From: Escherichia coli
Lineage (GTDB): Bacteria; Pseudomonadota; Gammaproteobacteria; Enterobacterales; Enterobacteriaceae
Strand: one strand, 5' to 3'
DNA: 64,000 nucleotides
Assembly: GCF_009931435.1 (NCBI RefSeq)
Contig: NZ_CP043414.1
The notes under the pieces are model-generated. The model did no database searches. It was not told where the DNA came from and saw nothing but the letters and a program-made list of their open reading frames with translations. Position numbers and translations under genes: made by a program. Positions 10,296 to 32,492 of the stretch are shown in pieces. Numbering within the stretch: position 1 is the first letter of the stretch; every line of letters starts with the position of its first letter.

Positions 10296-10374
10296 TTTTC
10301 TATACAGCCCTGTGTAAAATATTGCTAAACAGTGCCCGGGGTTGATTTTTATTCCTCACGGTGATATTTAAATC

Positions 10375-10797: not shown

Positions 10798-11341
10798 ATC
10801 CACTCTGTACGAACCTGTCCTGCATTTATGCCAGAAGTATTAGAATCTTTGCTTAACGTTACTCATACAGTAGCACCTTCATGTGCCTCTCTTTTTTACG
10901 AAAAATCAAAAGAGCTAACAAAAGTCATTCTTCGCATGAATCATTAATTATTTGTTATTTTCAACATTATTTTTACATTAAGCATATATGAATTGCAGTG
11001 AAATTCGACTTAACTTTTATGAAATGCATTTACTCATGGCTAAAGCCACGTCACAAAAATGCAAATTAGAAGTTGATCACAATTATCTCAATCCATCAAA
11101 TCAAGTTAATTTTAAAAATTTAACATCCATGACATTAGTTGACATAACACGCTGAATTAAAATGAGAATTTAAAAAAACACTTTAAACAATCATTTCCCG
11201 AAAGACATTTTGAAAATAGATCAATTGCAACATTACGGTCAGATAAAGACACTCCTCTGATATTAAACCTGTGCCGTTATGAACGGCCATAAATACGACG
11301 TGTGTAACTTAATTTACTCTCTGTCTTACAAAGGATTACCC

Positions 11342-11791
11342 ATGAAGAAAGCAACACTTGTGATTGGCGTTATTGGCGCGGACTGCCATGCAGTAGGCAA
11401 TAAAGTTCTGGACCGCGTTTTTAGCAACCATGACTTCAGAGTCATTAATCTGGGCGTAATGGTCAGCCAGGACGAATATATTGATGCTGCCATTGAAACT
11501 GGCGCTGACGCGATTGTCGTCTCCTCTATCTATGGGCATGGCGATATCGATTGTCTGGGCATGCGCGAACGCTGCATCGAGCGTGGGCTGGGTAACATCC
11601 TGCTCTATGTGGGCGGTAACCTGGTGGTCGGAAAACATGACTTCGCTGACGTGGAAACCAAGTTCAAAGAGATGGGATTTGATCGCGTCTTTTCCCCAAG
11701 TCATGACTTAGAAGATGTTTGTCAGCTGATGGCCCACGATATCAACCAACGTCATGACGTTGATACTCGCATTCTTGAAGAGGCAATCTGA
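11342..11791 (+). CDS. glmS: Glutamate mutase sigma (S) subunit, B12-binding (methylaspartate mutase small subunit)
   Basis: [24 protein letters not shown]... carries the DxHxxG cobalamin-binding motif and aligns by eye with clostridial GlmS/MutS; start at 11342 chosen over the track's 11279 because of the RBS. Confidence 0.85.
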
Positions 11792-13179: not shown

Positions 13180-13197
13180 CAATTAAGGCTGCAATCA

Positions 13198-15884: not shown

Positions 15885-15887
15885 CAA

Positions 15888-17258
15888 ATGGCTCGTTCTT
15901 TTAAAGTCTTATCGCCAACGGCAATCCTCGGGTATGGATTCCCGGAAGAGAGCTTCCGCAAAGCGATGGCAGAATCGCCCGATCTGATCGCCGTTGATGC
16001 AGGCTCTTCCGATCCTGGCCCCCACTACCTCGGGGCGGGCAAACCGTTTACCGATCGCGCAGGGGTCAAGCGCGATCTGCGCTATATGATCACCGCAGGC
16101 GTGCAAAATAATATACCGGTGGTGATCGGAACGGCCGGCGGTTCTGGTGCCGCTCCACACCTGGAGTGGTGCCGAGAAATAATTCATGAGATTGCCCGGG
16201 AAGAGCACCTCGCGTTCTCGATGGCGCTGATCCCGGCAGACGTTGACAAAGCCATCGTCCACCAGGCGCTGGATAACGGCAAAATCACAGCGCTGGATTT
16301 TGTCCCGCCGTTAACCCACGACGCGATTGACGAAAGTACGTATATCGTCGCGCAAATGGGCATCGAACCCTTCCAGCAGGCGCTGAAAGAAGGCGCGCAA
16401 GTGGTGCTGGGCGGGCGCGCTTACGACCCGGCCTGCTTTGCTGCGCTACCGATCATGCAAGGCTTTGATGAAGGTCTGGCGCTGCATTGTGGGAAAATCC
16501 TTGAATGCGCGGCAATCGCCGCAACGCCCGGCTCAGGCTCTGACTGTGCGATGGGCATCATTGATGACAACGGCTTTACGCTGAAGACATTTAATCCGAA
16601 GCGTAAATTTACCGAAACGTCAGCGGCTGCACACACACTGTATGAGAAATCCGATCCCTACTTCCTGCCAGGACCTGGCGGCGTGTTGAACCTGAAAGGC
16701 TGCACATTTAAAGCGGTCAATGACGGCGAAGTGTACGTCAGCGGTTCTAAGCATGAAGAAACGCCGTATGCCCTGAAACTGGAAGGTGCGCGGCGGGTGG
16801 GCTTCCGCTGTCTGACCATCGCAGGAACGCGCGACCCGATCATGATCGCCGGGATCGATAAAATCATCGATGAAGTCAAAACCAGCGTTTCGCGTAACCT
16901 GTCGCTCGACGATGACAGCATTCGCATCAATTTCCACCTGTACGGCAAAAACGGGGTGATGGGCGACCATGAACCGATGCAAACTGCCGGGCATGAGCTG
17001 GGGATTGTCCTTGATGTAGTTGCACCGACCCAGGATATTGCCAATAGCGTTTGCTCGCTGGTGCGCTCTACCATGCTGCACTACGGCTATGAAAACCGCA
17101 TCGCTACCGCAGGCAACCTGGCGTTCCCGTTCTCCCCTTCTGATATCCAGGGCGGGCCGGTATACGAATTTTCCATATATCACCTGATTGAAGCCAACGA
17201 CGCTCTGCGTTTTGATTTCCATATTGAACAGGTGACGCCAGAAGGAGTTCAGGCATGA
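15888..17258 (+). CDS. DUF1446 (AtuA-like) family protein, function unknown
   Basis: 456-aa ORF tightly linked downstream of mal; sequence resembles the acyclic-terpene-utilisation AtuA-like family as recalled. Confidence 0.6.
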   Translation: MARSFKVLSPTAILGYGFPEESFRKAMAESPDLIAVDAGSSDPGPHYLGAGKPFTDRAGVKRDLRYMITAGVQNNIPVVIGTAGGSGAAPHLEWCREIIHEIAREEHLAFSMALIPADVDKAIVHQALDNGKITALDFVPPLTHDAIDESTYIVAQMGIEPFQQALKEGAQVVLGGRAYDPACFAALPIMQGFDEGLALHCGKILECAAIAATPGSGSDCAMGIIDDNGFTLKTFNPKRKFTETSAAAHTLYEKSDPYFLPGPGGVLNLKGCTFKAVNDGEVYVSGSKHEETPYALKLEGARRVGFRCLTIAGTRDPIMIAGIDKIIDEVKTSVSRNLSLDDDSIRINFHLYGKNGVMGDHEPMQTAGHELGIVLDVVAPTQDIANSVCSLVRSTMLHYGYENRIATAGNLAFPFSPSDIQGGPVYEFSIYHLIEANDALRFDFHIEQVTPEGVQA

Positions 17259-17572
17259 AACAGTCAATTGTCTCACTGGCGCAAGTCATTCGTTCGAAAA
17301 ATGCCGGACCTTACGAACTGGTTTTAGATATTTTATTTAAAACGAAAGAAAACTATGAGCGAGTAAAATCATCAGGGCAATTAACCCCAGAACTGATTGC
17401 GCGCTTATATCATGTTGAACCTGACTTTATTCATCGTATTGTCTGGTTTGATCCTTCTAACGCAGTAAAAATTGTCATGCCACGAGATATTATCTCCGGG
17501 AATGTAGGTGACAATGATGTCTATGGCGCACAGCAACATGCACCTTTATTAAATATGAGTTTCGATTTGTAA
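17255..17572 (+). CDS. DUF4387-family small protein (partner of DUF1446 proteins)
   Basis: 105-aa ORF overlapping the previous stop by 4 nt (translational coupling). Confidence 0.55.
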   Translation: MKQSIVSLAQVIRSKNAGPYELVLDILFKTKENYERVKSSGQLTPELIARLYHVEPDFIHRIVWFDPSNAVKIVMPRDIISGNVGDNDVYGAQQHAPLLNMSFDL

Positions 17573-17732
17573 AAATCCGAACACTTTTAGCCAACTGACA
17601 TCCCGTCACTTATTGCAGCTCAACACTTCAGCTATTTGTAAGGTTGTTATAGCAGGTAGATGCCTGAATCTCTATTCAGGCATCCACTTCTCCTGATTCT
17701 GATTTATCGCCGTGCACCTGATGGAGGAAAAA

Positions 17733-19013
17733 ATGAAGAAAATAAGTTTAACCACGATGATTCTTTTGGCGCTGGTACTTGGAATGATTATCGGCGTAGT
17801 GCTCAATAACACTGCTTCACCGGAAACAGCAAAACTCTATGCGCAAGAAATATCGATATTCACGACGATTTTCTTACGACTGATAAAAATGATTATCGCT
17901 CCGTTAGTGGTCTCTACCCTGGTGGTAGGTATTGCTAAAATGGGCGATGCCAAAGCCCTTGGTCGTATTTTTTCTAAAACACTCTTTTTATTTATTTGCG
18001 CCTCATTGCTGTCAATTGCCTTAGGCTTGATAACGGTAAATTTCTTCATGCCAGGCACAGGAATTAATTTTGTTGCACACGGTGCCGAAACCACCGGAGT
18101 GGTCGCGTCAGAACCCTTTACACTAAAAGTATTTATTTCGCATGCTTTCCCCACCAGCATTGTCGATGCCATGGCGCACAATGAAATTTTGCAAATCGTG
18201 GTGTTCTCAATTTTCCTCGGCTGTAGCCTGACGGCGATTGGTGAGAAAGGCAGCGCCATCGTTCACGCCTTAGATTCGCTGGCACATGCCATGTTAAAGC
18301 TCACTGGCTACGTCATGCTCTTCGCTCCCCTGACCGTATTCGCCGCTATTTCAGCATTGATTGCTGAACGAGGACTGGCAGTTATGGTGAGCGCCGGGAT
18401 CTTTATGGGTGAATTTTATTTCACCATGTTATTACTTTGGGTGCTGCTTATCGGTCTGGCCATCGTTTATGTCGGCCCCTGCATCAGACGCCTGACCCGC
18501 GCCCTTTCAGAACCCGCCCTGCTGGCATTTACCACATCCAGTTCTGAAGCTGCTTTTCCGGGAACGCTTGAAAAACTGGAGCAATTTGGCGTTTCCCCCA
18601 AAATTGCCAGCTTTGTCTTACCCATTGGCTACTCATTTAATCTCGTTGGATCAATGGCCTACTGCTCCTTCGCCACAGTTTTCATCGCCCAGGCCTGCAA
18701 TATCCATTTATCCATCGGTGAGCAAATCACCATGCTGTTGATCCTGATGTTGACCTCGAAAGGAATGGCTGGCGTACCACGCGCCTCAATGGTGGTTATC
18801 GCCGCCACGCTCAACCAGTTCAATATTCCGGAAGCGGGGCTGATCTTGCTGATGGGCGTTGATCCGTTCCTTGATATGGGGCGTTCCGCGACAAACGTCA
18901 TGAGCAACGCAATGGGCGCTGCGATGGTGAGTCGGTGGGAAGGCGAACATTTCGGCGAGGGCTGTCGGGGTAAAGCATTAAAACCCAATGAATCGAACGT
19001 TGCTCTGCCCTGA
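17733..19013 (+). CDS. Dicarboxylate/amino acid:cation symporter (DAACS, GltP-like); putative glutamate or C4/C5-dicarboxylate uptake
   Basis: About 426-aa polytopic membrane protein with DAACS-like sequence; GGAGG upstream of the ATG at 17733 (track ORF starts at 17712). Confidence 0.75.
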   Translation: MKKISLTTMILLALVLGMIIGVVLNNTASPETAKLYAQEISIFTTIFLRLIKMIIAPLVVSTLVVGIAKMGDAKALGRIFSKTLFLFICASLLSIALGLITVNFFMPGTGINFVAHGAETTGVVASEPFTLKVFISHAFPTSIVDAMAHNEILQIVVFSIFLGCSLTAIGEKGSAIVHALDSLAHAMLKLTGYVMLFAPLTVFAAISALIAERGLAVMVSAGIFMGEFYFTMLLLWVLLIGLAIVYVGPCIRRLTRALSEPALLAFTTSSSEAAFPGTLEKLEQFGVSPKIASFVLPIGYSFNLVGSMAYCSFATVFIAQACNIHLSIGEQITMLLILMLTSKGMAGVPRASMVVIAATLNQFNIPEAGLILLMGVDPFLDMGRSATNVMSNAMGAAMVSRWEGEHFGEGCRGKALKPNESNVALP

Positions 19014-19120
19014 GGGGGATCTTAAGCAATCAGAAGCCAATGACTACGCATTTTTATAAGCCGGATCATGAAGTTAGACGGCAATTAAGTAACACTAACG
19101 TTTAAGGTGAAAAGTGAAAT

Positions 19121-20773
19121 ATGTCCAAACCATTTATCTGGCAAGAACCGTTTCTACAAAATAAAGACGGTACAGAATATACATTAATTAGCGATCAACA
19201 TATTACAGTAACGGAATTAGACGGCGAAGAAGTAATAAAAATCGCTCCTGAAGCATTAACGCTGCTTGCCCGGCAGGCATTTTATGAAGCCTCTTTTTTC
19301 TTACGTTCCGCTCATTTGCAACAGGTCGCCAGCATTCTTAACGATCCGCAGGCCAGCAGTAATGATAAATACGTTGCGTTGCAGTTATTACGTAATGCTG
19401 AAGTCTCAGCAAAAGGGGTATTACCCAACTGTCAGGATACCGGCACCGCAACTATTGTTGCCAGTAAAGGGCAACAGATATGGACGGGAGGTAACGACGC
19501 TGAAGCCTTAAGCAAAGGCATTTACAGTACTTTCCAGGAAAATAATCTGCGCTTTTCACAAAATGCGCCGCTGGATATGTATACCGAAGTCAATACGCAA
19601 ACCAATCTTCCGGCGCAGATTGATATCAGCGCTGTCGCTGGTAATGAGTACCATTTTCTCTGTGTTAATAAAGGGGGCGGCTCCGCCAATAAAGCCGCAC
19701 TTTATCAGGAAACCAAATCCTTATTGCAACCAGAAAAACTGACCGCATTTTTAATCGACAAAATGAAATCGTTGGGCACGGCCGCCTGCCCGCCCTACCA
19801 CATCGCCTTTGTCGTCGGAGGGCTTTCAGCCGATCAAACCTTAAAAGTTGCCAAGCTGGCCTCTACGAAATATTACGACAATTTGCCCACCAGCGGAAAC
19901 GAGCAGGGACAAGCATTCCGTGATATTGAGCTGGAAAAAGCGTTGCTCGAGGCCAGTCAGCAATTTGGTATTGGTGCGCAATTTGGGGGTAAATATTTCG
20001 CTCATGATATTCGCGTCATTCGTCTGCCGCGTCACGGTGGCTCTTGCCCGATAGCTATGGCGCTCTCCTGTTCTGCCGATCGCAATATCAAAGCAAAAAT
20101 TAACAAGCATGGTATCTGGCTGGAAAAACTCGAACACAATCCGGGGCAATATATTCCAGCCTCACTGCGGGAAGAAAATCACGCGCAACATGTACAGCTG
20201 GATCTAAACCGTCCGTTGCGTGACGTGATGCAGGATCTCGCCAGATTACCGGTAGGTACCCGCGTGTCGTTAAGTGGTCCCATCGTAGTGGCGCGCGATA
20301 TCGCCCACGCAAAAATAAAAGCGCGGCTGGATAGCGGCGAATCGATGCCGGATTACCTGAAGCATCATATTGTCTATTACGCTGGCCCGGCGAAAACACC
20401 GGAGAACATGGCCTGCGGTTCACTGGGTCCAACCACGGGCGGTCGAATGGACGGTTATGTCGAAACCTTCCAGGCGGCTGGCGGCAGTCTGGTAATGTTA
20501 TCGAAAGGTAACCGCAGCCAGCAGGTCACCGATGCCTGTCACAAACATGCAGGCTTCAATCTGGGAAGTATTGGCGGTGCAGCTGCGTTACTGGCGCAAG
20601 AATATGTCAAAAGTCTGCGTTGCCTGGAATACCCGGAGCTGGGTATGGAGGCGGTGTGGATGATGGAAGTGGAAAATCTGCCCGCATTCATCCTGGTTGA
20701 TGATAAAGGCAATAATTTCTTTAGCCAGTTTGAGCAGCAACACCGCTGCGCCAGTTGCCCTGCGGGACATTAA
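19121..20773 (+). CDS. fumD: Class I (Fe-S) fumarate hydratase family; probable mesaconase/fumarase
   Basis: 550-aa FumA/FumB-like ORF (..[10 protein letters not shown]..); its position in a glutamate mutase/methylaspartase cluster suggests mesaconate hydratase. Confidence 0.8.
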
Positions 20774-20782
20774 GGAAAATGA

Positions 20783-21385
20783 ATGGAAGCGCGAATTTCA
20801 ACTGAACGGCATGTGCAGCGCCAACAGAAATTGAAGGAACAGGTCGATACGCGCGTCGCGGCGGCGATAGAGAAAAAAGGGATCTTGATTGTTTTCACCG
20901 GCAACGGCAAAGGGAAATCCACTGCCGCGTTTGGTACTGTGACGCGCGCGGTGGGTCATGGCAAAACGGTGGGGGTTGCGCAGTACATCAAGGGGCAATG
21001 GGACAACGGCGAATACAACCTTCTCCAGCCGCTGGGGGTTGAGTTTCATATTATGGGAACCGGTTTTACCTGGGAGACTCAGAACCGGCAAGCGGATATC
21101 GACGCGGCGAAAGAGGTCTGGTCGGAAAGCAAACGGATGCTGGCTGACAAGCGTTACGACTTAGTGGTGCTTGATGAGCTGACCTATATGCTGGCTTACC
21201 ATTATCTGGACACCGAAGAAGTGATCACTTCTCTGCAAAACCGCCCGGCACAACAAAGTGTCATTGTCACCGGACGCAGTTGCCACAGTCAGATATTAAA
21301 AATGGCGGATACGGTCAGCGAAATCCGCCCCGTCAAACATGCTTTTGATAACGGCATTCAGGCGCAGCCGGGTATCGACTGGTAA
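20783..21385 (+). CDS. Cob(I)yrinic acid a,c-diamide / corrinoid adenosyltransferase (CobA/BtuR/CobO family)
   Basis: 200-aa ORF with P-loop GNGKGKSTAAFG; would supply adenosylcobalamin for glutamate mutase. Confidence 0.8.
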   Translation: MEARISTERHVQRQQKLKEQVDTRVAAAIEKKGILIVFTGNGKGKSTAAFGTVTRAVGHGKTVGVAQYIKGQWDNGEYNLLQPLGVEFHIMGTGFTWETQNRQADIDAAKEVWSESKRMLADKRYDLVVLDELTYMLAYHYLDTEEVITSLQNRPAQQSVIVTGRSCHSQILKMADTVSEIRPVKHAFDNGIQAQPGIDW

Positions 21386-21418
21386 TAACTGCGCCTGGCA
21401 TCCAGCCAGGCGCAGGTT

Positions 21419-22324
21419 TTACATCTCCTGCGGTACGACCGATTTCGCCAGCAACCATTCACGAAATTGCTGCAAGTGCGGCGAGTCAGACTTCTCTTCC
21501 TGCCACGTCATAATAAAACGATTACCGGTACGAATAGGCACATCACAGGGAATCACCATATCGCCACTATCCAAATCATGTTGAATAGCGAACCGTGGTA
21601 ACAGCGCCACGCCGAGATTAGAGCGCACGGCGGCAATCAGCATTGAAAGCAAATCGAAACGTGGTCCGTTATTGACCAGCGGACTGCTAACGCCAGATAA
21701 AGCAAACCACTCTTCCCAGCCAGTAATACGGGTGCTTTGATGCAGAAGTGGTAACTCAGTAAGCAGTTCTGCCACTGACAGTTTTTGATCGGACATTGCA
21801 AGCAAACTGCCGCTGCATACCGGCAAAATCTCCTCTTCAAAGAGATATTCTACTTCCGCCCAGGGCGCGCAAAAATTTTCGCGCATAATGACAGCATCGT
21901 ACTCCCGATTAAGAAAATCGCCGTTATTAGCTAAAGAATGAATATTAACAATAATATCGGGATGTAACTTTGTGAATTCATGTAAATTTGGGATTAACCA
22001 GTGGGTACTAAACGTAGGATTAACGGCAAGTTCAATAACCTGAACCGTAGGCTGCCAGGTCATAATCGTATTGGTATCGCGCTCCAATTTATTTAATGTT
22101 TCTTTTACTATCCCCAGGTAATACTTCCCTGCATCATTAAGAAAAATGCGTTTTTTAGAGTGTGAAAATAACGGAGTATGTAAAAATTCCTCCAACGCAC
22201 TTACTTGTCTGAATACTGCACTTTGGGTTAACGCTAACTCCTCTGCCGCTCTGGTATAACTTTCATGACGTGCGACGACCTCAAAAGTCACCAGCAGCTC
22301 CGTTTTAGGTATTTTTCCTCGCAT
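21419..22324 (-). CDS. LysR-family transcriptional regulator
   Basis: 301 aa; N-terminal HTH (LLVTFEVVARHESYTRAAEELALTQSAVFRQVSALE) plus substrate-binding domain. Confidence 0.85.
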   Translation of the reverse strand: MRGKIPKTELLVTFEVVARHESYTRAAEELALTQSAVFRQVSALEEFLHTPLFSHSKKRIFLNDAGKYYLGIVKETLNKLERDTNTIMTWQPTVQVIELAVNPTFSTHWLIPNLHEFTKLHPDIIVNIHSLANNGDFLNREYDAVIMRENFCAPWAEVEYLFEEEILPVCSGSLLAMSDQKLSVAELLTELPLLHQSTRITGWEEWFALSGVSSPLVNNGPRFDLLSMLIAAVRSNLGVALLPRFAIQHDLDSGDMVIPCDVPIRTGNRFIMTWQEEKSDSPHLQQFREWLLAKSVVPQEM

Positions 22325-22471
22325 AATGCCGTCCCTTAAAAATAGTTTAAACCATCAAAAATACATTACTTATTACGAAGTAATGGTAACCAAAGCAGCA
22401 ATAAATAATTTATAAGAATCATGATTAACATTTATAACCCAGTAAGCCTGGCGTGACAATTATCTTAATCA

Positions 22472-22509
22472 GATAATAATAATCCGAAAAGCACAGCACC
22501 TTTCGGATT
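22472..22509 (-). terminator. Hairpin downstream of the hut-like operon (candidate terminator)
   Basis: atccgaaa-N-tttcggat inverted repeat in the AT-rich spacer between the HAL-like gene and the LysR gene. Confidence 0.4.
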
Positions 22510-22594
22510 ATCAGGAATTACATTAAGTGAAAATTATTAAATTGATATCATTTATCATATCTGTGGATATAATGATAAACAATCAACATAGATT

Positions 22595-24265
22595 TTATTT
22601 TTGATTTATAGCATATCCCTCTAAGAATTTTTGCGATGCTTCAATATCCGGGGTAAAGACCCGATCCTGACTGACAAATGGCACGACTTGACGATAAGCG
22701 GTGAACATCGCTTTTGTTGATTTGCCTAACGCCAGCTGTGGATCGGCTTGCAAGCGCAAATCAATCGCCTGGGCAGAATGCATCAGTTCAATGCCATAAA
22801 TGACATTCAAATTATCAACAACCTGTTTCAATCTTCTCGCCGCGTGGTCGTTATTGGCACCCGTATCTTCAATGCCTCCGGCTACCGGTTGAATATCGAA
22901 AGAAACCGGGTTAGCGAGATCGACATTTTCCGCATGCAGCGCAACAAACGGGATATGTAATGAACCGAAGCCATGACCTTTATTACCTGCTGCCGACAGG
23001 AAGCGTGACAAACCGGTAAAGTGATCATCTTCAAGATGCAGCGAGCGGCGCATACTGTTATGTGAAACATGCACTAACGCCACGGTCAGACGCTGGGTGG
23101 CAAGCGCAACCGGTAACGATTCGAAATTCGCCGTCGGGAAGATCCCACCGCTGATTGCCCCATCTTTAACAAAATATTGCGCGACCTGACTGGAGTCCTG
23201 ATACGCTTTGTCTGCATTCAGCACGGTTGCCGGGTTGTCATCGGAACTGTTGATCTGCACGGTAATGGTATCTTCAGCATCGCGCAACGCGCGCATTGCC
23301 TCAGAAATGGTATACACCGTCGTTCTGAACGATAACGGATCCTGCAATGCACGTTTGTCATCCTTATGCCATAAATAAGAACCACTTAACGCATCGCGAA
23401 TCTCTTTAGCGGAATCAGCCAACTGCGGGAAAGGACGCACGGCGATCGACTGCGGCAGTACCGGCGCGACATTGCCATTCAACGCTTCGAGGCTCATGGC
23501 GAAAACCACCGGACTGACATTCAGCACCTGGCGTGCCGACCGTACCGCTTCAATTGCATATGCTGTTCCGACACTGTTGTTCGACAAAATCGCCAGCATA
23601 TCTTTACCCTGCGGGACCAGTGGTTTAAGCCCCACTTTCACCAGCGCATCGCCACCACTCATTTCCACGCCATTAACCCGCGCTTTCCACTCGCCCATCA
23701 TCACCAGACCAACGTGTGAAGCGAGCATAATATCCGCTGCGCCGATACTTCCCCGCGCCGGAATTAACGGCGTAACGCCTCGATTAATAAACTCGGCATA
23801 CAACTCGGCAATATAAGGCTGCGCGCCGGTTTGCCCATGCAACATAGTATTTAAACGTAACACCATTGAGAGACGGGCAAGATAATCCGGCAACATCGGA
23901 CCGACGCCCGCAGAATGGGCGCGCAGCGCGGCAGCATTAAATTTTTTCGATGCGTCAATCACCTCAGGCGTTAAATTTCCTTTGGCATCAAATATGGGCT
24001 GATCTTTATTTAGCCCCACGCCCACGGTTAAGCCATAAACAGGCGTACCTGAATGCGCGGCAGTCATCACCAGATCATAACTTTTTTCCATGCGCTCCAT
24101 GGCGTTCGACGCGATTTTGACGCCGTTATCACCTAATGCAATTGACCAGGCCTGGTCAATAGAGAGATGTTCGCCATCCAGCGTAATGGTTGATTTTGCC
24201 ATCGCGATGGAGCAAACGCTCCAGAGCACAACGGTGACAGTGACTCTGCGTATCAATCCTTTCAT
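22595..24265 (-). CDS. Histidine ammonia-lyase-like protein (aromatic amino acid lyase fold) with N-terminal signal peptide and no Ala-Ser-Gly MIO triad
   Basis: 556 aa; MKGLIRRVTVTVVLWSVCSIAMA|KS signal-like N-terminus; region aligning to the HAL GSxGASGDLAPL motif reads GSIGAADIMLASH. Confidence 0.7.
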   Translation of the reverse strand: MKGLIRRVTVTVVLWSVCSIAMAKSTITLDGEHLSIDQAWSIALGDNGVKIASNAMERMEKSYDLVMTAAHSGTPVYGLTVGVGLNKDQPIFDAKGNLTPEVIDASKKFNAAALRAHSAGVGPMLPDYLARLSMVLRLNTMLHGQTGAQPYIAELYAEFINRGVTPLIPARGSIGAADIMLASHVGLVMMGEWKARVNGVEMSGGDALVKVGLKPLVPQGKDMLAILSNNSVGTAYAIEAVRSARQVLNVSPVVFAMSLEALNGNVAPVLPQSIAVRPFPQLADSAKEIRDALSGSYLWHKDDKRALQDPLSFRTTVYTISEAMRALRDAEDTITVQINSSDDNPATVLNADKAYQDSSQVAQYFVKDGAISGGIFPTANFESLPVALATQRLTVALVHVSHNSMRRSLHLEDDHFTGLSRFLSAAGNKGHGFGSLHIPFVALHAENVDLANPVSFDIQPVAGGIEDTGANNDHAARRLKQVVDNLNVIYGIELMHSAQAIDLRLQADPQLALGKSTKAMFTAYRQVVPFVSQDRVFTPDIEASQKFLEGYAINQK

Positions 24266-24315
24266 TGTGTTTCCTTATTTTGATGAGTTTAACAACGGAT
24301 TACTGCAACAACCTC

Positions 24316-25266
24316 TTAATTTGTTTTATCTGTTTTTCCTCGACGGACAATAGTGGCAGCCAGGCGAGCGGCAACCTTCGCGGTCAAATTATCGCGGTCC
24401 AAATCTGGGTTCAGTTCGGCAATATCCGCAGCAATCAACTTCTCGCTACCGGCAATTAAATTCACAATAGCCTCAGCAATATTTAATGGCACGCCTAACG
24501 GCGAAGGCGCAGAAACGCCAGGAGCCTGATAACCCGGTAAGACATCAAGACAAATCGTTAAATAAATGGCGTCACACGCCTGAATATCTGCCGAGAGCGC
24601 ATTAACAATCTCATGCAAACCACGTTCAAATTGCAGAGATTCATCCAGCCAATAACGCACACCAGGACAATCAGCACGATCAAATAACGCCTGAGTGTTG
24701 GCATAACGGCTTATTCCCAGCACGCGATAATGAAACGGTTTGCCATGCTGCGCATTCCACTCCTGCATCTGCCGAAACGGCGTACCCGAATTGGCCTTTT
24801 CCGCCATCCGCAAATCAAAATGCGCGTCAAGGTTGACTATCAGCAGTCGCCGAATATCCGGACGCGACTGCATAATCCCCTGAAATGTTCCCCATGCCAC
24901 TTCATGACCGCCGCCCAGAACGACCGGCAAACTGCCGCGCGCAATTGCCATAGCCACGTTTTCCGCCAGACGGTTTTGTGCGGGTTCCAGCGCGTGGTCT
25001 TCGCTTTGCACGTCACCCATGTCAAAAATAGCGCCTTCATGGAGCACTGGCATATTGCCCAACATGCTGCGTAATGCGCCCGGTCCGCCTGCTGCGCCCG
25101 CTCGCCCACCGTTACGTTGCACCCCGTCATCGACGGCAAAACCAATCAGCGTACTGCCTCCATGACTTTGTTCGGTAAACGGTTTTACATGCTGATGCCA
25201 GCGGGTGCTGACGCCAGTTTCCTGCGAGTCAACACGTCCACTCCATGCCATAAATGTTTGCTTCAT
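24316..25266 (-). CDS. hutG: Formimidoylglutamase (arginase-family HutG)
   Basis: Arginase/ureohydrolase-like ORF; start placed at MKQTFMAWSG so the ATG overlaps the hutI stop. Confidence 0.75.
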   Translation of the reverse strand: MKQTFMAWSGRVDSQETGVSTRWHQHVKPFTEQSHGGSTLIGFAVDDGVQRNGGRAGAAGGPGALRSMLGNMPVLHEGAIFDMGDVQSEDHALEPAQNRLAENVAMAIARGSLPVVLGGGHEVAWGTFQGIMQSRPDIRRLLIVNLDAHFDLRMAEKANSGTPFRQMQEWNAQHGKPFHYRVLGISRYANTQALFDRADCPGVRYWLDESLQFERGLHEIVNALSADIQACDAIYLTICLDVLPGYQAPGVSAPSPLGVPLNIAEAIVNLIAGSEKLIAADIAELNPDLDRDNLTAKVAARLAATIVRRGKTDKTN

Positions 25267-26477
25267 TACCAACTCCTTTTTCCGCCGACAATCAGCCCCA
25301 GACAAGGCTGATGTCCAAACCAGTAAGCCAGCTCACGCGGATGATTAAGATCCCAAACAGCCATATCCGCCCGTAGTCCCGGCGCAAGTTCACCCCGATC
25401 AACAAGTCCAAGCGCTTTTGCCGCATGACGTGTAACGCCCTGAACGGCTTCCAGCGGGGTCATGTGAAACAGCGTACAGGCCATATTGATCATCAACTGC
25501 AATGACATGTTGGGAGACGTTCCGGGGTTATGATCCGTGGAGATGGCAATCGGCACACCTGCGGCCCGCAGAGCGACAATCGGCGGCAGATGGGTTTCGC
25601 GCAGGAAGTAATAAGCACCGGGAAGCAAAACCGCCACTGTTCCAGCCGCTTTCATGGCGGCGATCCCCGACTCGCTCAGGTACTCCAGATGATCGCAGGA
25701 GAGTGCAGAAAACGCCGCTGCCAGCGCCGCGCCTTGCTGGTCAGAAAGCTGTTCGGCATGCAGTTTTACAGGTAATCCATAGCTTTGCGCTTTACTGAAA
25801 ACGCGCCGTACCTGCTCTGGAGTAAAGGCGATGTTTTCACAAAAAGCATCAACTGCATCAATCAGCCCCTGTTCATGCAACACGCACATCCAGTCGCAAA
25901 GCGCCGTAATGTAATCATCACTGCGCCCGGCAAACTCTGGCGGCAGGCTGTGCGCCCCGAGAAACGTAGACTGAATATGTAACCCGGTAGATTGCTGCAA
26001 GCGGCGGATCACGCGTAAACAACGCGCTTCATCTTCCAGCGTTAAGCCATAACCCGATTTGATTTCAAGCGTACTGACGCCTTCACGTTGCCAGTTTCGC
26101 AGTCGCTGCGCCGCCAGTTCAAACAGCTGTGTTTCGCTGGCTGCCCGCGTGGCATTAACCGTAGATAAGATCCCGCCGCCCGCTCTGGCGATATCTTCAT
26201 AAGCCACGCCTTGCAACCGCATCTCAAACTCGTTCGCCCTCTGGCCGCCATACACCAGATGTGTATGACAATCTACCAGACCGGGTGTCAGCAACTTACC
26301 CTGTAGATCGTGTTCTTCTGTAATATCAGCCGTCAGTTCACGGGGGATCTGCGTGGCCTTCCCAAGCCAGACAATCGAGTCACCGCGGCTGATTAATGCA
26401 CCGTTTTCAATCACCCCCCAATCATTAGCCGAAAGCGTCGTCAGGGTGGTATTTCGCCAGAGCGTAAATGCACTCAT
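25266..26477 (-). CDS. hutI: Imidazolonepropionase
   Basis: Amidohydrolase ORF with DCHTHLVYGG metal-binding motif; start at MSAFTLW overlapping the hutD stop. Confidence 0.85.
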   Translation of the reverse strand: MSAFTLWRNTTLTTLSANDWGVIENGALISRGDSIVWLGKATQIPRELTADITEEHDLQGKLLTPGLVDCHTHLVYGGQRANEFEMRLQGVAYEDIARAGGGILSTVNATRAASETQLFELAAQRLRNWQREGVSTLEIKSGYGLTLEDEARCLRVIRRLQQSTGLHIQSTFLGAHSLPPEFAGRSDDYITALCDWMCVLHEQGLIDAVDAFCENIAFTPEQVRRVFSKAQSYGLPVKLHAEQLSDQQGAALAAAFSALSCDHLEYLSESGIAAMKAAGTVAVLLPGAYYFLRETHLPPIVALRAAGVPIAISTDHNPGTSPNMSLQLMINMACTLFHMTPLEAVQGVTRHAAKALGLVDRGELAPGLRADMAVWDLNHPRELAYWFGHQPCLGLIVGGKRSW

Positions 26478-27064
26478 AAGGATTTTTCCCCTCGTAGATA
26501 ATAAATCCACCAACCCGCCAGCTCGCCGACGGAGACTTTTTGCTGTGGTACGAAACGCCAGGAGTTGCCATCAGGCGCAAACCGCCATAACAACGTATTC
26601 GCCGTTACAAACACCCTGTTCTCGCCGCTTATCCACTCCCCTTCACACAGCGTGAACAGCCCCGCTTGCGCATGCGCCGGAGGGAGCCAGTCAATGACGC
26701 TTTGCACACGACGCATCCCCGCATCGCCTTCCCGCGCCATAATATTCAGATCGCGAACCCCGCCGCCCAGCAGCTGACAATCAGGCATTGCTTCTCCAGG
26801 GAAAATTAAGGCGGGATCGTGACGTTGCAGGTTGATGATCGAATCGGCAAACGTTAGCTTCACCCCTTCCCCGTCGAGGATCGCGAGGCCACGAACCACG
26901 CCAGGCCACGCTGAAAAAGGGCCATCCTGACTGACATTCGCCATACTGATGCGCAACAACCAGTTTTCATCATCGGGCCAGGCAAGCAGCTGTCGGGTAA
27001 ACCCCCCGCCGTTGCGCCACGGTTGCAGCGGCTTATCCATTGCAGAAATCAGCATCGGTTCCAT
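26474..27064 (-). CDS. hutD: HutD-family protein
   Basis: 196-aa ORF (..PWRNGGGFTRQL..) resembling HutD; embedded in the hut cluster. Confidence 0.65.
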   Translation of the reverse strand: MEPMLISAMDKPLQPWRNGGGFTRQLLAWPDDENWLLRISMANVSQDGPFSAWPGVVRGLAILDGEGVKLTFADSIINLQRHDPALIFPGEAMPDCQLLGGGVRDLNIMAREGDAGMRRVQSVIDWLPPAHAQAGLFTLCEGEWISGENRVFVTANTLLWRFAPDGNSWRFVPQQKVSVGELAGWWIYYLRGEKSL

Positions 27065-27065
27065 A

Positions 27066-28475
27066 TTAAGACTCGGGATAAATCGTATAAGCAGGAACGC
27101 AGGTGGTGCGTTTGGCCCACGGGTAATAGATAACGGCGGTAATTAACAAGCCGACAATCCAGGAGATATCCGCCCCATCCATCAGGACAGAAATGGGTCC
27201 CTGATACAGTTTTTGATTCAGGAAGGGGATCTGCACCAACACGCCTACGCCATAGCACGTCAAAGCGGTTTTGTTATACGCGCCATAACGCCCTTCCGGG
27301 GTATAAAGCGCTGGAATATCGGTTTTACCTTGTGAGATGAAGTAATAATCGATGAGATTAATGGCACTCCACGGAACAAATACCGTCAACAGTAGCAGAA
27401 CGAAGTTTTTGAAATTATTCAAAAAATCTGCGCTTGCCGCCAGCGCGACGACCATCGACAACAGCACGAACCCTACAACGTAGGCAGCACGAACACGCTG
27501 TGAAACCTGACTGCGATCATTAAAGGCGCTGACGGTCGCCAGAATCGACATAAAGCCACCGTAGGCATTCAAACAGTTCACCGTCAGTTTGCCGCAAACA
27601 ATCACCATATAAATCAGAATGGCGAAGGTGGGTCCGGCTAACTCGCCCATAAAACCAACCTGATCCTTCAGGAAGTTAGCACCACAGGCCGCAACAAGTA
27701 CGCCAAACGTCATGGCACATTGCGCACCAAGCGTGGTTCCCAGAAAGGTGGCAAAGAAGATTGATTTTGCTGGCGTATCAGAGGGTAAATAGCGGGAATA
27801 ATCAGAGGCGTAAGGGGCAAACGTTAATTGCCATCCGGCAGAGAGAGCAATCGTTAATAAAAAGACCGACAGACTAAATGGCTTTTGACCAAATGCCGCA
27901 GCCACATCGTAGTGACCGCTAAGTTGAGTGGCCAGGTAAATAAACCCCAGAATACTTAATATCCCTGCAACACGGCCAACGACGTGAATTAGTTTATAAC
28001 CGACCAATGCGATCATCGCGGTCAGCATGCCGAAAATAATAATTCCGGTCGATGCCGATTCGAAACCAAATATCCGGTTAATCGCCTGACCGGATAATAC
28101 TGTACCCGTCGCGGCAAATCCAAGGTACATAATAATCACCATCAGTAACGGTAGCGCCGCTCCTTTAACGCCAAAGCGGATACGACTGGAGATCATCTGG
28201 GGTAATCCCAGCTTTGCCCCCTGCGACGAGTGCAATGCCATTACTGCACCACCAATAATATTACCGATTAATAAACCAATTATTGCTGACATAGCTTCGG
28301 AGCCAAAAATAATCGCTAACGCGCCGTCCACCACTGCGGTAATTTGTAAGTTAGCACTTAGCCATAAAGTAAACTGACTAGATGGCGCGCCGTGGCGAGC
28401 AGACTCAGGAACGGCGTTAATCGTATTTGATTCTAATACTGGCTTTTTACTGCGGATAGGGCTGCTTGATTCCAT
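27066..28475 (-). CDS. NCS1-family (cytosine/purine/uracil/allantoin-type) permease; candidate histidine/urocanate/imidazole-compound importer
   Basis: Polytopic membrane ORF; start set at MESSSP with AGGAGA RBS (track ORF starts at 28520). Confidence 0.7.
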   Translation of the reverse strand: MESSSPIRSKKPVLESNTINAVPESARHGAPSSQFTLWLSANLQITAVVDGALAIIFGSEAMSAIIGLLIGNIIGGAVMALHSSQGAKLGLPQMISSRIRFGVKGAALPLLMVIIMYLGFAATGTVLSGQAINRIFGFESASTGIIIFGMLTAMIALVGYKLIHVVGRVAGILSILGFIYLATQLSGHYDVAAAFGQKPFSLSVFLLTIALSAGWQLTFAPYASDYSRYLPSDTPAKSIFFATFLGTTLGAQCAMTFGVLVAACGANFLKDQVGFMGELAGPTFAILIYMVIVCGKLTVNCLNAYGGFMSILATVSAFNDRSQVSQRVRAAYVVGFVLLSMVVALAASADFLNNFKNFVLLLLTVFVPWSAINLIDYYFISQGKTDIPALYTPEGRYGAYNKTALTCYGVGVLVQIPFLNQKLYQGPISVLMDGADISWIVGLLITAVIYYPWAKRTTCVPAYTIYPES

Positions 28476-28638
28476 GAAAAAGTCTCCTGCAAAATGAGAG
28501 GTCATTTTTTGAAACAGCAATAGAGGGTCGGGAGATATTTTTCTCGACGATGTAAAAATATTTTTTGATAATTATTGTTATACAGGCGAATTATTCTCCG
28601 CCTGTATTAGCGCAAATATTAAATGACGGCGTTAATAT

Positions 28639-30336
28639 TTAGCGAATCATCGGTAATTTCAGACCATAGTTTTTGGCACATTCAATTGCCGCTTCATAAC
28701 CCGCATCCGCATGACGCATAACCCCGGACGCACAGTCATTCACCAGCACACGCGCCAGACGTTTTTCGGCTTCTTCGCTACCATCGGCAACAATAACCAT
28801 CCCGGCGTGTTGTGAATACCCCATCCCGACGCCGCCGCCATGATGCAGGGATACCCACGTTGCTCCCCCTGCAGTGTTGAGCAAACCGTTGAGCAACGGC
28901 CAGTCAGAAACCGCATCACTGCCATCAAGCATGCTTTCGGTTTCGCGGTTCGGGCTGGCGACAGAACCGGTATCAAGATGATCGCGCCCAATCACAATCG
29001 GTGCTTTTAGTTCACCGTTGCGCACCATTTCGTTGAATGCCAGCCCCGCCAGGTGACGCTCACCAAGCCCCAGCCAGCAAATACGTGAAGGAAGTCCCTG
29101 GAAGGCAATGCGCTCGCGCGCCATATCCAGCCAGCGATGCGTCAGTACGTTATTGGGGAACAACTCTTTAATTTTGGCATCGGTTTTATAGATATCTTCC
29201 GGGTCGCCAGACAGCGCCACCCAACGGAATGGACCTTTGCCTTCACAAAACATTGGACGAATATAAGCCGGAACAAAGCCCGGGAAATCAAAGGCATTTT
29301 GCAGACCTTCGTTGAAGGCCACCTGGCGGATGTTGTTGCCATAATCGACAACCGGGATCCCCATCGCCTGGAAGTCCAGCATCCCCTGAACATGTGCGAC
29401 GCAGCTCTGTGCCGCTTCTTTTTGCAATCTGGCGTGTTGCTGTGGATCCTGCTGTGCAGCGCGCCATTGTTCTACGCTCCAGCCCATCGGTAGGTAGCCA
29501 TAAACCAGATCGTGAGCGGAAGTCTGGTCGGTTACCAGATCCGGCTTAATCGCCCCCTGATGCGCACGTTTCACCAGCTCAGGAACAATTTCCGCCGCAT
29601 TGCCCAACAGCGCGATTGAAACAGCGTCTTTGCGCTCGGTATGGTATTTAATCAGCGCCAGTGCATCATCAAGATCTTTCGCTTGTTTATCGACATAACG
29701 GGTACGCAGTCGGAAGTCGATGCTACTTTGCTGGCACTCGATATTTAATGAGCACGCCCCCGCCAGAGTCGCCGCCAGCGGTTGTGCGCCACCCATACCA
29801 CCGAGCCCCGCGGTCAGGATCCATTTTCCACTCAGCGAATTGTTGTAGTGCTGACGACCCGCTTCAACAAAGGTTTCGAACGTTCCCTGCACAATGCCCT
29901 GACTACCGATGTAGATCCACGAGCCAGCGGTCATCTGGCCGTACATGAACAGACCTTTACGATCCAGTTCATTGAAATGATCCCAGTTGGCCCATTGCGG
30001 TACCAGGTTAGAGTTGGCAATCAATACGCGCGGCGCATCGGTATGCGTTTTAAACACGCCTACGGGTTTACCGGACTGAACCAGCAGTGACTCATCAGCT
30101 TCCAGATTTTTCAGTGATTCAAGGATCTTGTCAAAACACTCCCAGTTACGTGCCGCACGACCAATACCACCATACACCACCAGATGCTGTGGATTTTCGG
30201 CAACGTCGGGATCAAGGTTGTTCTGCAACATCCGGTAGGCTGCTTCAATTTGCCAGTTTTTGCAGTGCAGCTGCGTACCGTGTGGCGCATGGATTACACG
30301 GCTGGTATCAATACGCGGGTCTGAAGGCTTACTCAT
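28639..30336 (-). CDS. hutU: Urocanate hydratase (urocanase)
   Basis: About 565 aa from [47 protein letters not shown]; AGGAGA RBS upstream; the track ORF extends to 30435. Confidence 0.9.
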
Positions 30337-30454
30337 GAATCTTCTCCTGTTACTTGATAAAATTAAACGCTGTAATCGGTCAGAAAAAACGAACGAATGA
30401 ATATAGAAACGGTTTCTATAATTCCCGTTTATCATTTTGTATTATTAATTCATT

Positions 30455-30487
30455 TAGTGAATATTGTTTGTCTTGGTATATTCACTA
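30455..30487. promoter_or_regulatory. Perfect 10-bp inverted repeat (TAGTGAATAT-N13-ATATTCACTA) in the hutU leader; candidate operator
   Basis: Seen directly, 20-50 bp upstream of the hutU start, in the divergent hutU / rtcB-like intergenic region. Confidence 0.4.
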
Positions 30488-31093
30488 TGAATATAAATTC
30501 AAAACCACCAACGCGTTGTATGCGAATTCAATATGCTTAATTTAACTTGTCGAAAAAGTGATATTGTTGGCAAAATATTTTCTAATTTGAACATATGAAT
30601 ATGATGAGATTGCAAGATGTCAGTAATTTAATTATCTAAGAAATGCGTTAATAACGACCAGATATTAGCGTAACAACAGGTGTTCCGACACCACACAGTG
30701 CGCATAACACAATGATATTTAAAATAAGATCTTCATTATTCGTCATAAAGACATGTTTTATTATCATTAATAATCCATTTGTTTTCATCCCACTTTTGAT
30801 AATTAAAAAACGGCAACAATGGCTAGTTACCCGACGTAAAAATAGGCGTAAAAATAAATCTTAAAATATATCCACTGGAAATTATCATTTTTCATATTTT
30901 ACAATCTGGCGTCGATAACTTACCCCTTTTATAACACCCCCGTTTGTTAATAGTCTTTTTTATCTTGTATTGATCGTCATTGCTGCATACACTACGCGCG
31001 TTTTCTTTCCCTTTTGCTGGCTGCTGACCGGAAAGACAAAATTACCCTCGCAATACAGGGGGTTGATTAACGTCTATATTTCAGGACAGCGTT

Positions 31094-32492
31094 ATGCATC
31101 ATCTTTCAAGGCTTGATAAAGCCTTTCTGCGCAAAGGGATCCAACTTTCCCGCGCCAACAATATTGTTTCATTATGTCGTCCATCAGGAGCCAGTGCCCG
31201 CGTACTGCTGCCGGACGAACTGCCGCTGGAAGAAAAAGCAGTGACACAACTGCTTGATTTTGCAGAAGTGAAGATACCAGGCCATCCAGGTTACGTACGC
31301 CAGACGTGCGCGACGCCAGATTTTCATCCCGGCAATGGCGTCCCCGTTGGCGCGGTGGTGGCCTCAACGCCGGATTTAGTCATTCCCGCCGCCATCGGCA
31401 CCGATATTTCTTGTGGCATGCGGCTGCTGACGACCGGATTAACCCTTGAGCAAGCCGAAGCGAATAAAGAAATAATCACTCAGCGGTTAACACAAGTGTT
31501 ACTGCAGAATGAGCGCGATGTTCCGTTATCCGCACGAGCGTTCACCGCGCTTTTTGATGGCGGACCGGCAGATTGCATGTCGGCCTTGCCATCAGCAGGT
31601 CTCTGGACACGTACAAATATCCCCCGGATGACGCAAGAGATTGACCGCTGCATTGGGCTTAACGAGCATAACAGTCATTCGCGTTATGCCCCCACCTGCC
31701 CTGCTGGCAACGGACCGCGCATTACTCCGCGATCCTTGTCTTGGTACGCCGGGTTCAGGTAATCATTTTATTGAACTTCAGGTCGTTGATAGCGTGGTTG
31801 ATCGCCATGTAGCCTGGCAACAAGGGCTGAAAACAGGCGATATTGTGGTGATGATCCACAGTGGATCGCGAGATGTTGGCTTTTACGTCGGAAGACGCTG
31901 GATGGATCGCGCCCGTGCTGAATGGCCCACCGGACATAAACATCCACAAAGCGGGTTATATGGTCTGGCAGGCGGACTGGCGGAGGAATATCTACAAGCG
32001 ATAGGAATGGCGGCGCGTTACGCGTGGTTAAATCGCGTGACAATTGCCGAAATGGTGCGCGTATGTCTTGCCAATCTCTTTCATCAGGACAATTCGCATC
32101 TGGTGGTGGATGTGCCACATAACATCATCCTTCGCGAGCATGAAATGAATATTCATCGCAAAGGCGCAACACCGGCACGAGTGGGCAATCTGGCGTTAAT
32201 CCCCGGTTCAATGGGCGATTATTCGTGGCTTGCGGTTGGTTGCGGCAACCCGGAGTGGCTGTGGTCATGCAGTCACGGAGCAGGACGCAGCCAGCGTCGG
32301 CAGGCCATGCGCTCACGCGCGACTGAAGAGTCAACGCTGCCGTGGCAATGCGTCACATTGCGCGAAGAACGACGTCTTGAAGAAGCGCCAGCGGCTTATA
32401 AAGATATTGGTCCGGTTATCGAAGCCCAACAAGAAGCCGGATTAATTCAGCCTGTGGTCAGATTTCGACCGTGGTTAACGTTTAAGGCATAA
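31094..32492 (+). pseudogene. RtcB-family RNA ligase-like gene split by a frameshift (or a sequencing error) near 31690
   Basis: Two overlapping ORFs in different frames (31094..31762 and 31641..32492) carry RtcB-like motifs (DISCGMRLL; GSGNHFIELQ; CSHGAGRS); C5 run at 31688-31692. Confidence 0.6.

Follow-up and report, generated by a model that had tools for sequence, protein, structure and literature searches.

MIO-less trimethylammonia-lyases, which have the fold of histidine ammonia-lyase (HAL) and work without its 4-methylideneimidazole-5-one (MIO) electrophile, were characterized between 2019 and 2026, with ergothionase as the founding member. Periplasmic members have been described in two preprints from the Bogachev laboratory. 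Swoo_3913 from Shewanella woodyi converts hercynine to urocanate and trimethylamine, shows no activity on histidine, and has almost none on ergothioneine (Bertsova et al., 10.1101/2025.08.13.670108). Two enzymes of Shewanella oneidensis have been assigned as well, SO_3057 as an ergothionase and SO_3299 as a lyase of N-pi-methyl hercynine (10.64898/2026.04.22.720169). The characterized members cleave N-alpha-trimethyl substrates only and do not act on histidine, and the residue Lys384, which is essential for the activity of the Treponema ergothionase, is Asn in Swoo_3913 and Gln in SO_3299 (10.1101/2025.08.13.670108; 10.64898/2026.04.22.720169). Here we describe a hut-like block of six genes in Escherichia coli, located on the minus strand at positions 22595 to 30336 of a 64,000-nucleotide stretch of contig NZ_CP043414.1, which is referred to below as the window. 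The last gene of the block encodes a HAL-like protein that belongs to this family. Our reading, to which we assign a probability of roughly 0.55, is that the operon is an accessory E. coli module for the consumption not of histidine but of a histidine betaine, and that this betaine is most probably hercynine (N-alpha,N-alpha,N-alpha-trimethylhistidine).

Comparison of the HAL-like protein (the lyase) with the HAL of Pseudomonas putida by HMMER paired GSIGAA-DIMLASH of the lyase with GSVGASGDLAPLAH of the P. putida enzyme. The Ala-Ser-Gly triad of the latter (GSVGASGD) corresponds to Ala176-Ala177 and a one-residue gap in the lyase (GSIGAAD). The HutH of Comamonas, used as a control, keeps the triad. 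Against two curated HutH models the lyase scored 277 and 295 bits and failed both (cut-offs 539 and 524). Without the MIO triad, the lyase cannot work by the MIO mechanism. An earlier note on this DNA had claimed that the triad is lost and that standard MIO-based deamination of histidine is not to be expected, and both claims were borne out by these results. Searching the Protein Data Bank with phmmer revealed the ergothionase of Treponema denticola (6s7j) as the top match (1.4e-86, 295 bits), with 168 bits for HAL. The same structure was the top Foldseek match of the lyase model (E value, 1.8e-34; template modeling score, 0.92), and every HAL ranked lower. Judged from its sequence and its model, the lyase belongs to the MIO-less, periplasmic trimethylammonia-lyases (ergothionase/histidine betaine lyase group). 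The earlier note had left the role of the MIO-less paralog open; as far as its kind is concerned, this has been superseded by the assignment to a characterized family.

Analysis of the active site revealed six residues, Y77, H117, Q308, R314, N339, and E466, that are invariant across the relatives, including the T. denticola ergothionase (Td_ETL) and Swoo_3913. The numbering of the functional residues in the lyase is nearly the same as in the published enzymes. The roles named for the matching residues are those of the beta-proton acceptor (Tyr77), the carboxylate ligands (Gln308, Arg314, and Asn339), and the ligands of the imidazole nitrogens (His117 and Glu466). Retention of the carboxylate and imidazole ligands suggests a histidine-derived substrate.

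The thiolate-binding Lys384 of the Treponema enzyme corresponds to Ile438 in the lyase, as part of a GSLHIP motif. At least 1,448 hits belong to the family. When the query and its 120 closest homologs were aligned (121 sequences), the Lys motif GA[IV]QK was present in 102 sequences and GS[LI]H[IV]P in 18, and one sequence carried Asp. The GS[LI]H[IV]P group comprises the query, six other Escherichia alleles, the 85%-identical protein P0007, the protein P0008, and nine sequences without a leader, of which five carry the label Enterococcus. In a neighbor-joining tree, the sequences with Ile or Val cluster together beside a Lys-type Burkholderiales-like sequence, within the Lys-type majority. The simplest interpretation of this placement is that the Lys was lost secondarily. 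The exchange of Lys384 for Ile438 argues for hercynine over ergothioneine as the substrate, since the characterized enzymes acting on sulfur-free substrates likewise lack the Lys. The lyase shows 55 to 64% identity to periplasmic enzymes of the Lys type, among them relatives of the ergothionase SO_3057 (55 to 56% for SO_3057-like Shewanella proteins). Orthology to the proven hercynine lyase Swoo_3913 was considered and rejected, given an identity of 39%, calculated with a Swoo_3913 sequence taken from the preprint supplement by optical character recognition and possibly containing errors, and given the placement of the two proteins on separate branches. Hercynine activity of the lyase, if present, would have arisen independently (convergently) within the family.

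The gene block comprises the following features, given in the direction of transcription with their positions in the window.

28639 to 30336, minus strand: hutU, urocanate hydratase, 565 amino acids (aa); TIGR01228, 934 bits (cut-off, 375)
28580 to 28607, minus strand: hairpin ATACAGGCG-N10-CGCCTGTAT in the spacer between hutU and the NCS1 gene; RNAfold, -16.7 kcal/mol
27066 to 28475, minus strand: NCS1-family permease, 469 aa; PF02133, 172 bits
26474 to 27064, minus strand: hutD, HutD/Ves bicupin; PF05962, 109 bits
25266 to 26477, minus strand: hutI, imidazolonepropionase, 403 aa from the ATG at 26477; TIGR01224, 452 bits (cut-off, 298)
24316 to 25266, minus strand: hutG, formimidoylglutamase, 316 aa; TIGR01227, 288 bits (cut-off, 229)
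24263 to 24276, minus strand: Shine-Dalgarno sequence AAGGA, 7-nucleotide (nt) spacer, and ATG of the long lyase start; conserved in strain CE10
24194 to 24265, minus strand: signal peptide codons 1 to 24 (MKGLIRRVTVTVVLWSVCSIAMA|K), with predicted cleavage after Ala-Met-Ala
22595 to 24265, minus strand: MIO-less HAL-family lyase, predicted periplasmic trimethylammonia-lyase, 556-aa precursor; PF00221, 410 bits
22473 to 22509, minus strand: hairpin followed by the T-rich run TTATTATTAT, 86 nt past the lyase stop codon; RNAfold, -18.0 kcal/mol
21419 to 22324, minus strand: gene for a LysR-type (GcvA-like) regulator, downstream of the lyase gene

The model matches confirmed the order hutU, NCS1 gene, hutD, hutI, hutG, HAL-like gene on the minus strand that the earlier note had given. 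The hutU reading frame is open back to 30435, and its start was taken to be the ATG at 30336, as in RefSeq. The overlapping stop and start codons claimed before were found at two junctions, hutD/hutI (ATGA, 4-nt overlap) and hutI/hutG (TAATG, 1-nt overlap). The other three junctions are gapped, by 1 nt (NCS1/hutD), 50 nt (hutG/lyase), and 163 nt (hutU/NCS1). The claim of a single operon is likewise upheld in part: the two overlaps and the synteny conserved across 143 genomes make it plausible that the block from hutU to the lyase gene is co-transcribed as one unit, and the 163-nt gap with its stable hairpin past hutU speaks against it. This hairpin (28580 to 28607) is possibly a partial terminator or a processing site, and the hairpin past the lyase gene (22473 to 22509) is likely to mark the end of the transcription unit. 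The latter was not picked out by the consensus terminator scan. Scanning the sequence for consensus promoters and terminators gave counts no higher than the shuffled level, and an Rfam search gave zero matches.

Upstream of hutU, a single perfect 10-nt inverted repeat, TAGTGAATAT-N13-ATATTCACTA, is located at 30455 to 30487, about 120 nt before the hutU start; the AT-rich spacer around it measures 757 nt. The repeat is a candidate operator with no resemblance to the HutC box. As the earlier note had claimed, canonical HutH and HutC are missing from the cluster: within the 64-kb window, the part of this genome that was searched for them, neither another HAL gene nor a GntR/UTRA (HutC-like) gene is present. 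Genomes that bear the cluster have no second hutU-type locus, and two hutU-like places in one genome were seen in a single E. coli genome record.

The N terminus of the lyase was compared with those of its relatives. One genome per species from 100,044 species was scanned with the family alignment, which yielded 274 relatives, and the best 80 loci were kept. Among the 73 full-length Gram-negative relatives in this 80-locus scan, 72 have a hydrophobic leader of 20 to 35 residues with a small-x-small end just before the motif (I/V)xLDG, and the lone leaderless case results from the start codon chosen by the analysis script. The Enterococcus relatives are leaderless, and their proteins start at the (I/V)xLDG motif. 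In P0007, the frame and the hydrophobicity of the leader are kept despite many substitutions, and compared with strain CE10 the leader codons show three synonymous and no nonsynonymous changes. The sequence AAGGA is positioned 7 nt ahead of the ATG at 24265, and no comparable site precedes the alternative start at Met22. The AlphaFold model (mean predicted local distance difference test [pLDDT] score, 88) places residues 1 to 22 at a pLDDT of <50, with a detached helix formed by residues 4 to 15, and the fold begins at residue 25. The comparison supports the view that the N terminus is an export signal, as the earlier note had held in describing a Sec-type N terminus, and it is from this comparison that we infer a periplasmic location. 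Cleavage would occur after Ala-Met-Ala24 and leave a mature protein of residues 25 to 556 that starts with Lys25. Export by the twin-arginine translocation (Tat) system was considered and rejected: the leader contains Arg-Arg and is short and strongly hydrophobic, and the Arg-Arg pair occurs in none of the relatives, including the 85%-identical one. The leader is more likely a signal for the general secretory (Sec) system.

RefSeq is inconsistent about this start. WP_170881811 and WP_012602238 are 556-aa proteins, and P0003 and P0004 begin at Met22 and have 535 aa. The short call strips the signal peptide and would mislead predictions of localization; it is a recurrent start codon error. Some records name the lyase gene hutH (histidine ammonia-lyase), which is contradicted by the missing MIO triad.

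HutU, HutI, and HutG all score above the cut-offs of their NCBIfam equivalog models. Against the models for thiourocanate hydratase and S-methylthiourocanate hydratase (NF058530 and NF058531; cut-offs, 930 and 880), HutU scored about 670 bits and failed both, an argument for plain urocanate as the product to be processed. Its identity to the HutU encoded in a canonical Comamonas hut locus is 83%. The neighborhood of the operon lacks the thiourocanate reductase, desulfhydrase, and hydantoinase of the ergothioneine pathway. The NCS1 permease has many orthologs with 60 to 72% identity, found among the Comamonadaceae, Nocardia, Streptomyces, and Rhizobium. The one in Comamonas testosteroni (67% identical) is encoded between a GntR/UTRA gene (hutC) and hutU-hutD-hutI, near a canonical HutH, and the Nocardia ortholog adjoins a GntR/UTRA gene. 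The 120 best NCS1 matches (all at least 61% identical) include no Pseudomonas protein. In Pseudomonas, HutTu (PA5099), encoded beside hutU, is described as a urocanate-specific carrier, and on the basis of context we propose that the NCS1 permease is a HutTu-like urocanate importer. HutD of Pseudomonas is an accessory "governor" of Hut flux (PMC8034625).

In the proposed mechanism, hercynine would reach the periplasm, where the Sec-exported lyase would eliminate trimethylamine from it and leave trans-urocanate, with Tyr77 taking the beta-proton. The MIO electrophile would be unnecessary, since a quaternary ammonium group leaves readily. Urocanate would be brought into the cell by the NCS1 permease and converted by cytoplasmic HutU, HutI, and HutG to L-glutamate and formamide, with HutD modulating the flux, and trimethylamine would be released. 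The glutamate could serve as a nitrogen source or feed the adjacent methylaspartate glutamate fermentation cluster. The family is known for N-alpha-trimethyl substrates, which suggests that an N-alpha-trimethylated histidine is cleaved outside and urocanate is imported. We judge the claim that the cluster takes up and degrades urocanate, or a precursor of urocanate, rather than histidine to be supported. We consider the chances about even that approximately 2.6% of complete E. coli genomes (including that of the neonatal meningitis strain CE10), together with one or more protein records of E. marmotae (P0004), encode a previously unrecognized route in which hercynine is split in the periplasm into trimethylamine and urocanate and the urocanate is imported and turned into glutamate.

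Several observations weigh against hercynine consumption by a single dedicated operon. The lyase is not orthologous to Swoo_3913 and differs from it at the key position, with Ile in place of Asn. No member has been characterized of the GSLH[IV]P subclade, which departs from the Lys, Asn, and Gln classes at the specificity position. In the GE(A/G)D motif, which replaces the MIO triad in most relatives, the Glu is Ala in the lyase (GAAD). The contexts of subclade members in Enterococcus and at locus L001 are unrelated, and the substrate of the subclade cannot be read from context in general; outside Escherichia, the hut linkage has no independent phylogenetic replicate. The likeness of the NCS1 permease to the Pseudomonas HutTu is one of context, no dedicated regulator of the operon was identified, and the 163-nt gap between hutU and the NCS1 gene contains the hairpin of -16.7 kcal/mol. 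The unusual motif is also the ground for an alternative that we regard as unlikely, namely, that the lyase acts on another, perhaps as yet undescribed, N-alpha-quaternized imidazole (e.g., a ring-methylated hercynine), that GSLH[IV]P marks a new specificity class, and that the hut genes handle only part of the product pool. SO_3299 illustrates how a change at this position can yield an unexpected specificity, that for N-pi-methyl hercynine, and members of the subclade do occur in non-hut contexts. However, the adjacent HutU, HutI, and HutG are canonical, with a HutU 83% identical to a standard one, which fits plain urocanate, and His117 and Glu466, which bind the imidazole nitrogens, are intact. 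It is less probable still that the lyase is an ergothionase that cleaves ergothioneine to thiourocanate and trimethylamine. The closest solved structure is that of an ergothionase, the identity to Lys-type periplasmic enzymes reaches 64%, Swoo_3913 itself keeps trace activity on ergothioneine, and the lyase gene is the sole ergothionase family gene found in E. coli, where the Lys-type cluster of E. albertii is unmatched. These points are opposed by the replacement of the essential thiolate-binding Lys384 by Ile438, by a neighboring HutU that scores as a urocanase and not as a thiourocanate hydratase, by the lack of the thiourocanate reductase, desulfhydrase, and hydantoinase nearby, and by the absence of the island from E. 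coli W and K-12-like genomes. An "ergothionase from E. coli" was reportedly described by Wolff in 1962, and under this alternative the lyase gene could be the one behind it; we claim no link between that activity and the lyase. In a 2026 paper, E. coli is said to lack any ergothionase homolog, and the 1962 report is called into doubt (PMC13405746).

Two further explanations leave the Hut enzymes as they are and assign the lyase a different place. If the block were a plain urocanate utilization operon, the lyase could be an unconnected or decaying passenger from a respiratory cluster. Its gene is the last of the block and is preceded by a 50-nt spacer, its relatives are nearly always paired with reductases and not with Hut enzymes, and one E. 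coli allele (P0002) has lost nine residues. Yet the reading frame is intact, the gene is syntenic in 143 genomes, and its ratio of nonsynonymous to synonymous substitution rates (dN/dS) against CE10 is 0.07 at a dS of 0.20. With the Shine-Dalgarno sequence and all catalytic residues conserved, and with the NCS1 and lyase genes still adjacent at locus L004, which carries P0007, we find this explanation improbable. Translation from Met22, finally, would yield a cytoplasmic enzyme, with the NCS1 permease importing the betaine itself. The Prokaryotic Genome Annotation Pipeline gives the 535-aa product in many genomes, and the Enterococcus relatives are indeed leaderless, cytoplasmic, and equipped with their own major facilitator superfamily (MFS) importer. 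We give this version very little credence: the good Shine-Dalgarno site lies at Met1 and none at Met22, a homologous leader is found in nearly all full-length Gram-negative relatives, its frame and hydrophobicity persist in the 85%-identical protein of L004, and its codons have changed only synonymously. NCS1 orthologs, moreover, are found in ordinary hut loci. Consumption of hercynine by an exported lyase, with import of the resulting urocanate, is the reading that we retain.

Distribution of the operon was analyzed in complete E. coli genomes. The six-gene block is complete and syntenic in 143 of 5,426 genomes and always chromosomal. No plasmid-borne lyase gene was found, the matches being to chromosomal scraps only. 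The 8.4-kb stretch from 22300 to 30700 is 99.8% identical to strain R32_14_1F. All operon genes except hutD are under strong purifying selection: compared with CE10 (L094), hutU, the NCS1 gene, hutI, and hutG have dN/dS values of 0.02 to 0.07, close to the value of the lyase gene, and hutD alone is relaxed (0.43). The dS values are uneven along the operon, with 0.40 for hutG, 0.20 for the lyase gene, 0.14 for hutI, and 0.04 for hutU, the NCS1 gene, and the LysR gene, which suggests recombination between allele lineages. Beyond the 143 genomes with the whole cluster, a full-length hutU was present in 14 more E. coli genomes. In the E. coli collection, 25 records matched hutU at 60 to 80% identity, and 24 hutU matches were on plasmid records. 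Some of these extra matches may represent separately acquired conventional hut operons.

The operon lies in an island between cydA and sucD, in place of the mngR-mngAB genes of K-12 and W. E. coli W was considered as a carrier and rejected; its sucD is followed, as in K-12, by mngR-mngAB. The remainder of the island (approximately 8550 to 21400) starts with two hypothetical genes in a stretch of 39% GC, followed by genes for glutamate fermentation. Its genes include glmS-glmL-glmE and those for methylaspartate ammonia-lyase, AtuA/DUF4387, a glutamate-type symporter, the class I fumarase FumD (mesaconase), and cobO. The same methylaspartate glutamate fermentation cluster has been described for O157:H7 by Kronen and Berg in 2015, who draw the LysR-type regulator within the glm-mal-fumD cluster (PMC4682846). 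The end product of the operon, glutamate, would be the substrate of this neighboring cluster, and the two may be functionally tied. The LysR gene was considered as the regulator of the operon, which was not supported: it is kept in approximately 860 further genomes without the operon, including O157:H7 (a LysR-proximal match of 433 nt), and the literature places it in the glutamate fermentation cluster, to which it probably belongs. The O157:H7 representative (L006) keeps scraps of the lyase gene (window positions 22595 to 22732 and 23075 to 23136) and of rtcB (32219 to 32275) between the LysR gene and sucD. These scraps indicate that the hut-like operon is ancestral to the island and was lost from O157:H7 by deletion. 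The rtcB gene itself (31094 to 32492) has a 1-nt insertion compared with the intact 465-aa RtcB of R32_14_1F and is split into two open reading frames. It is either a frameshifted pseudogene or the result of a sequencing error. The rtcB segment is 96% identical to R32_14_1F, versus 99.8% for the adjacent operon.

To compare lyase neighborhoods in other species, the 10-kb flanks of the 80 best loci were searched, the queries being the Hut proteins of E. coli and the flavocytochrome proteins of E. albertii. A FAD_binding_2 flavoprotein was encoded within 10 kb of the lyase at 73 of the 80 loci; 12 of these flavoproteins are divergent (about 34% identical) and are paired with lyases of a paralog class in which GATED replaces GAIQK. 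Hut genes were found at one locus, in a metagenome bin labelled Citrobacter; with 97% identity to the query, this locus amounts to the Escherichia cluster itself. Among these loci, coupling of the lyase to the hydrolytic Hut pathway thus appears to be confined to Escherichia. In E. albertii, the arrangement is a respiratory one of lyase, flavoprotein, cytochrome c3, and cytochrome b; this Lys-type cluster was matched by none of the E. coli genomes searched.

The GATED class was found at loci L064, L067, L068, L070 to L075, L077, L082, L083, L086, and L087, with Sutterellaceae, Turicimonas, and others as hosts. At 12 of these 14 loci, the lyase gene adjoins that of the divergent flavin adenine dinucleotide (FAD) flavoprotein (33 to 35% identical). 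The class looks like a further uncharacterized substrate specificity in gut Sutterellaceae.

Neighborhoods within the GS[LI]H[IV]P group differ from one another. In L004 (a contig of SRR27755633; 1419 to 5377), an 85%-identical NCS1 gene directly precedes the gene for P0007. The genes hutD, hutI, and hutG are absent between the two, and a scrap upstream is 37% identical to the C terminus of HutU. L004 may have arisen from the operon by decay or rearrangement, and the pairing of NCS1 and lyase is the sole association that was seen twice. P0008 (L001) sits in a hydroxyproline-type cluster. In Enterococcus (L002 and L003; 5518 to 12554), the genes for leaderless GSLHVP-type lyases lie between those for an MFS carrier and a CoA-transferase and that for an NMO/FabK-type flavoenzyme (a reductase), and a sigma-54 activator is encoded in the flanks as well. 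This module appears to be a cytoplasmic, probably reductive, Gram-positive variant.

A minority of E. coli genomes therefore carry a member of the ergothionase family. If hercynine is the substrate, the operon would represent the first catabolic (nonrespiratory) use of a trimethylammonia-lyase and would contradict the 2026 statement that E. coli has no gene of the ergothionase family (PMC13405746). Trimethylammonia-lyases, Hut enzymes, and HutTu-like carriers are each already known. What is new is the combination of an exported betaine lyase replacing histidase in a HutC-less Hut pathway, its occurrence in E. coli, and the uncharacterized specificity motif. Full-text literature searches revealed no paper that ties a trimethylammonia-lyase to hutU, hutI, and hutG or that describes the E. 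coli operon. Trimethylamine formed by gut bacteria is the precursor of trimethylamine N-oxide. It is accepted to arise through the pathways of choline, carnitine, and betaine; an origin from ergothioneine or hercynine is under debate. The operon, if our reading is true, would be a new enterobacterial source of gut trimethylamine from dietary or fungal hercynine.

Compared with Swoo_3913, the E. coli lyase has the same MIO-less HAL fold, a leader, and the same catalytic and ligand residues; both lack the thiolate-binding Lys, and both have a urocanate consumer encoded adjacent to them. In Shewanella, however, urocanate stays in the periplasm as the respiratory electron acceptor for UrdA, whereas the E. 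coli locus has no reductase and instead encodes an importer and a hydrolytic route to glutamate, with the HutU hydratase as the consumer. With the ergothionases Td_ETL (6s7j) and SO_3057 the lyase has in common the closest solved structure (6s7j) and, as predicted from its sequence, the MIO-independent elimination of trimethylamine typical of the family. It differs from them in having Ile438 in place of Lys384 and in being surrounded by enzymes for urocanate and not for thiourocanate. The respiratory clusters of lyase and flavocytochrome c in Shewanella, Sutterella, Hafnia, Citrobacter, E. albertii, and others resemble the E. coli locus in the lyase family and its export. These clusters (73 of the 80 loci) have no hut genes, and the E. 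coli locus has neither a flavoprotein nor a cytochrome. Every characterized lyase of the family is wired to respiration, whereas that of E. coli is wired to nitrogen and carbon assimilation via Hut.

HutU, HutI, and HutG of the operon are those of the four-step, formamide-releasing route known from canonical Hut systems (hutUH-hutIGC in enteric bacteria), and an NCS1 carrier gene next to hutU and a hutD gene are likewise found in the hut loci of Pseudomonas and Comamonas. Pseudomonas hut loci contain a second HAL paralog, hutH1 (PA5093), which is dispensable. Unlike the canonical Hut systems, the E. coli locus has no MIO histidase and no HutC, and the pathway would be entered via an exported betaine lyase. 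Such an entry point would explain how a hut cluster can do without histidase and HutC.

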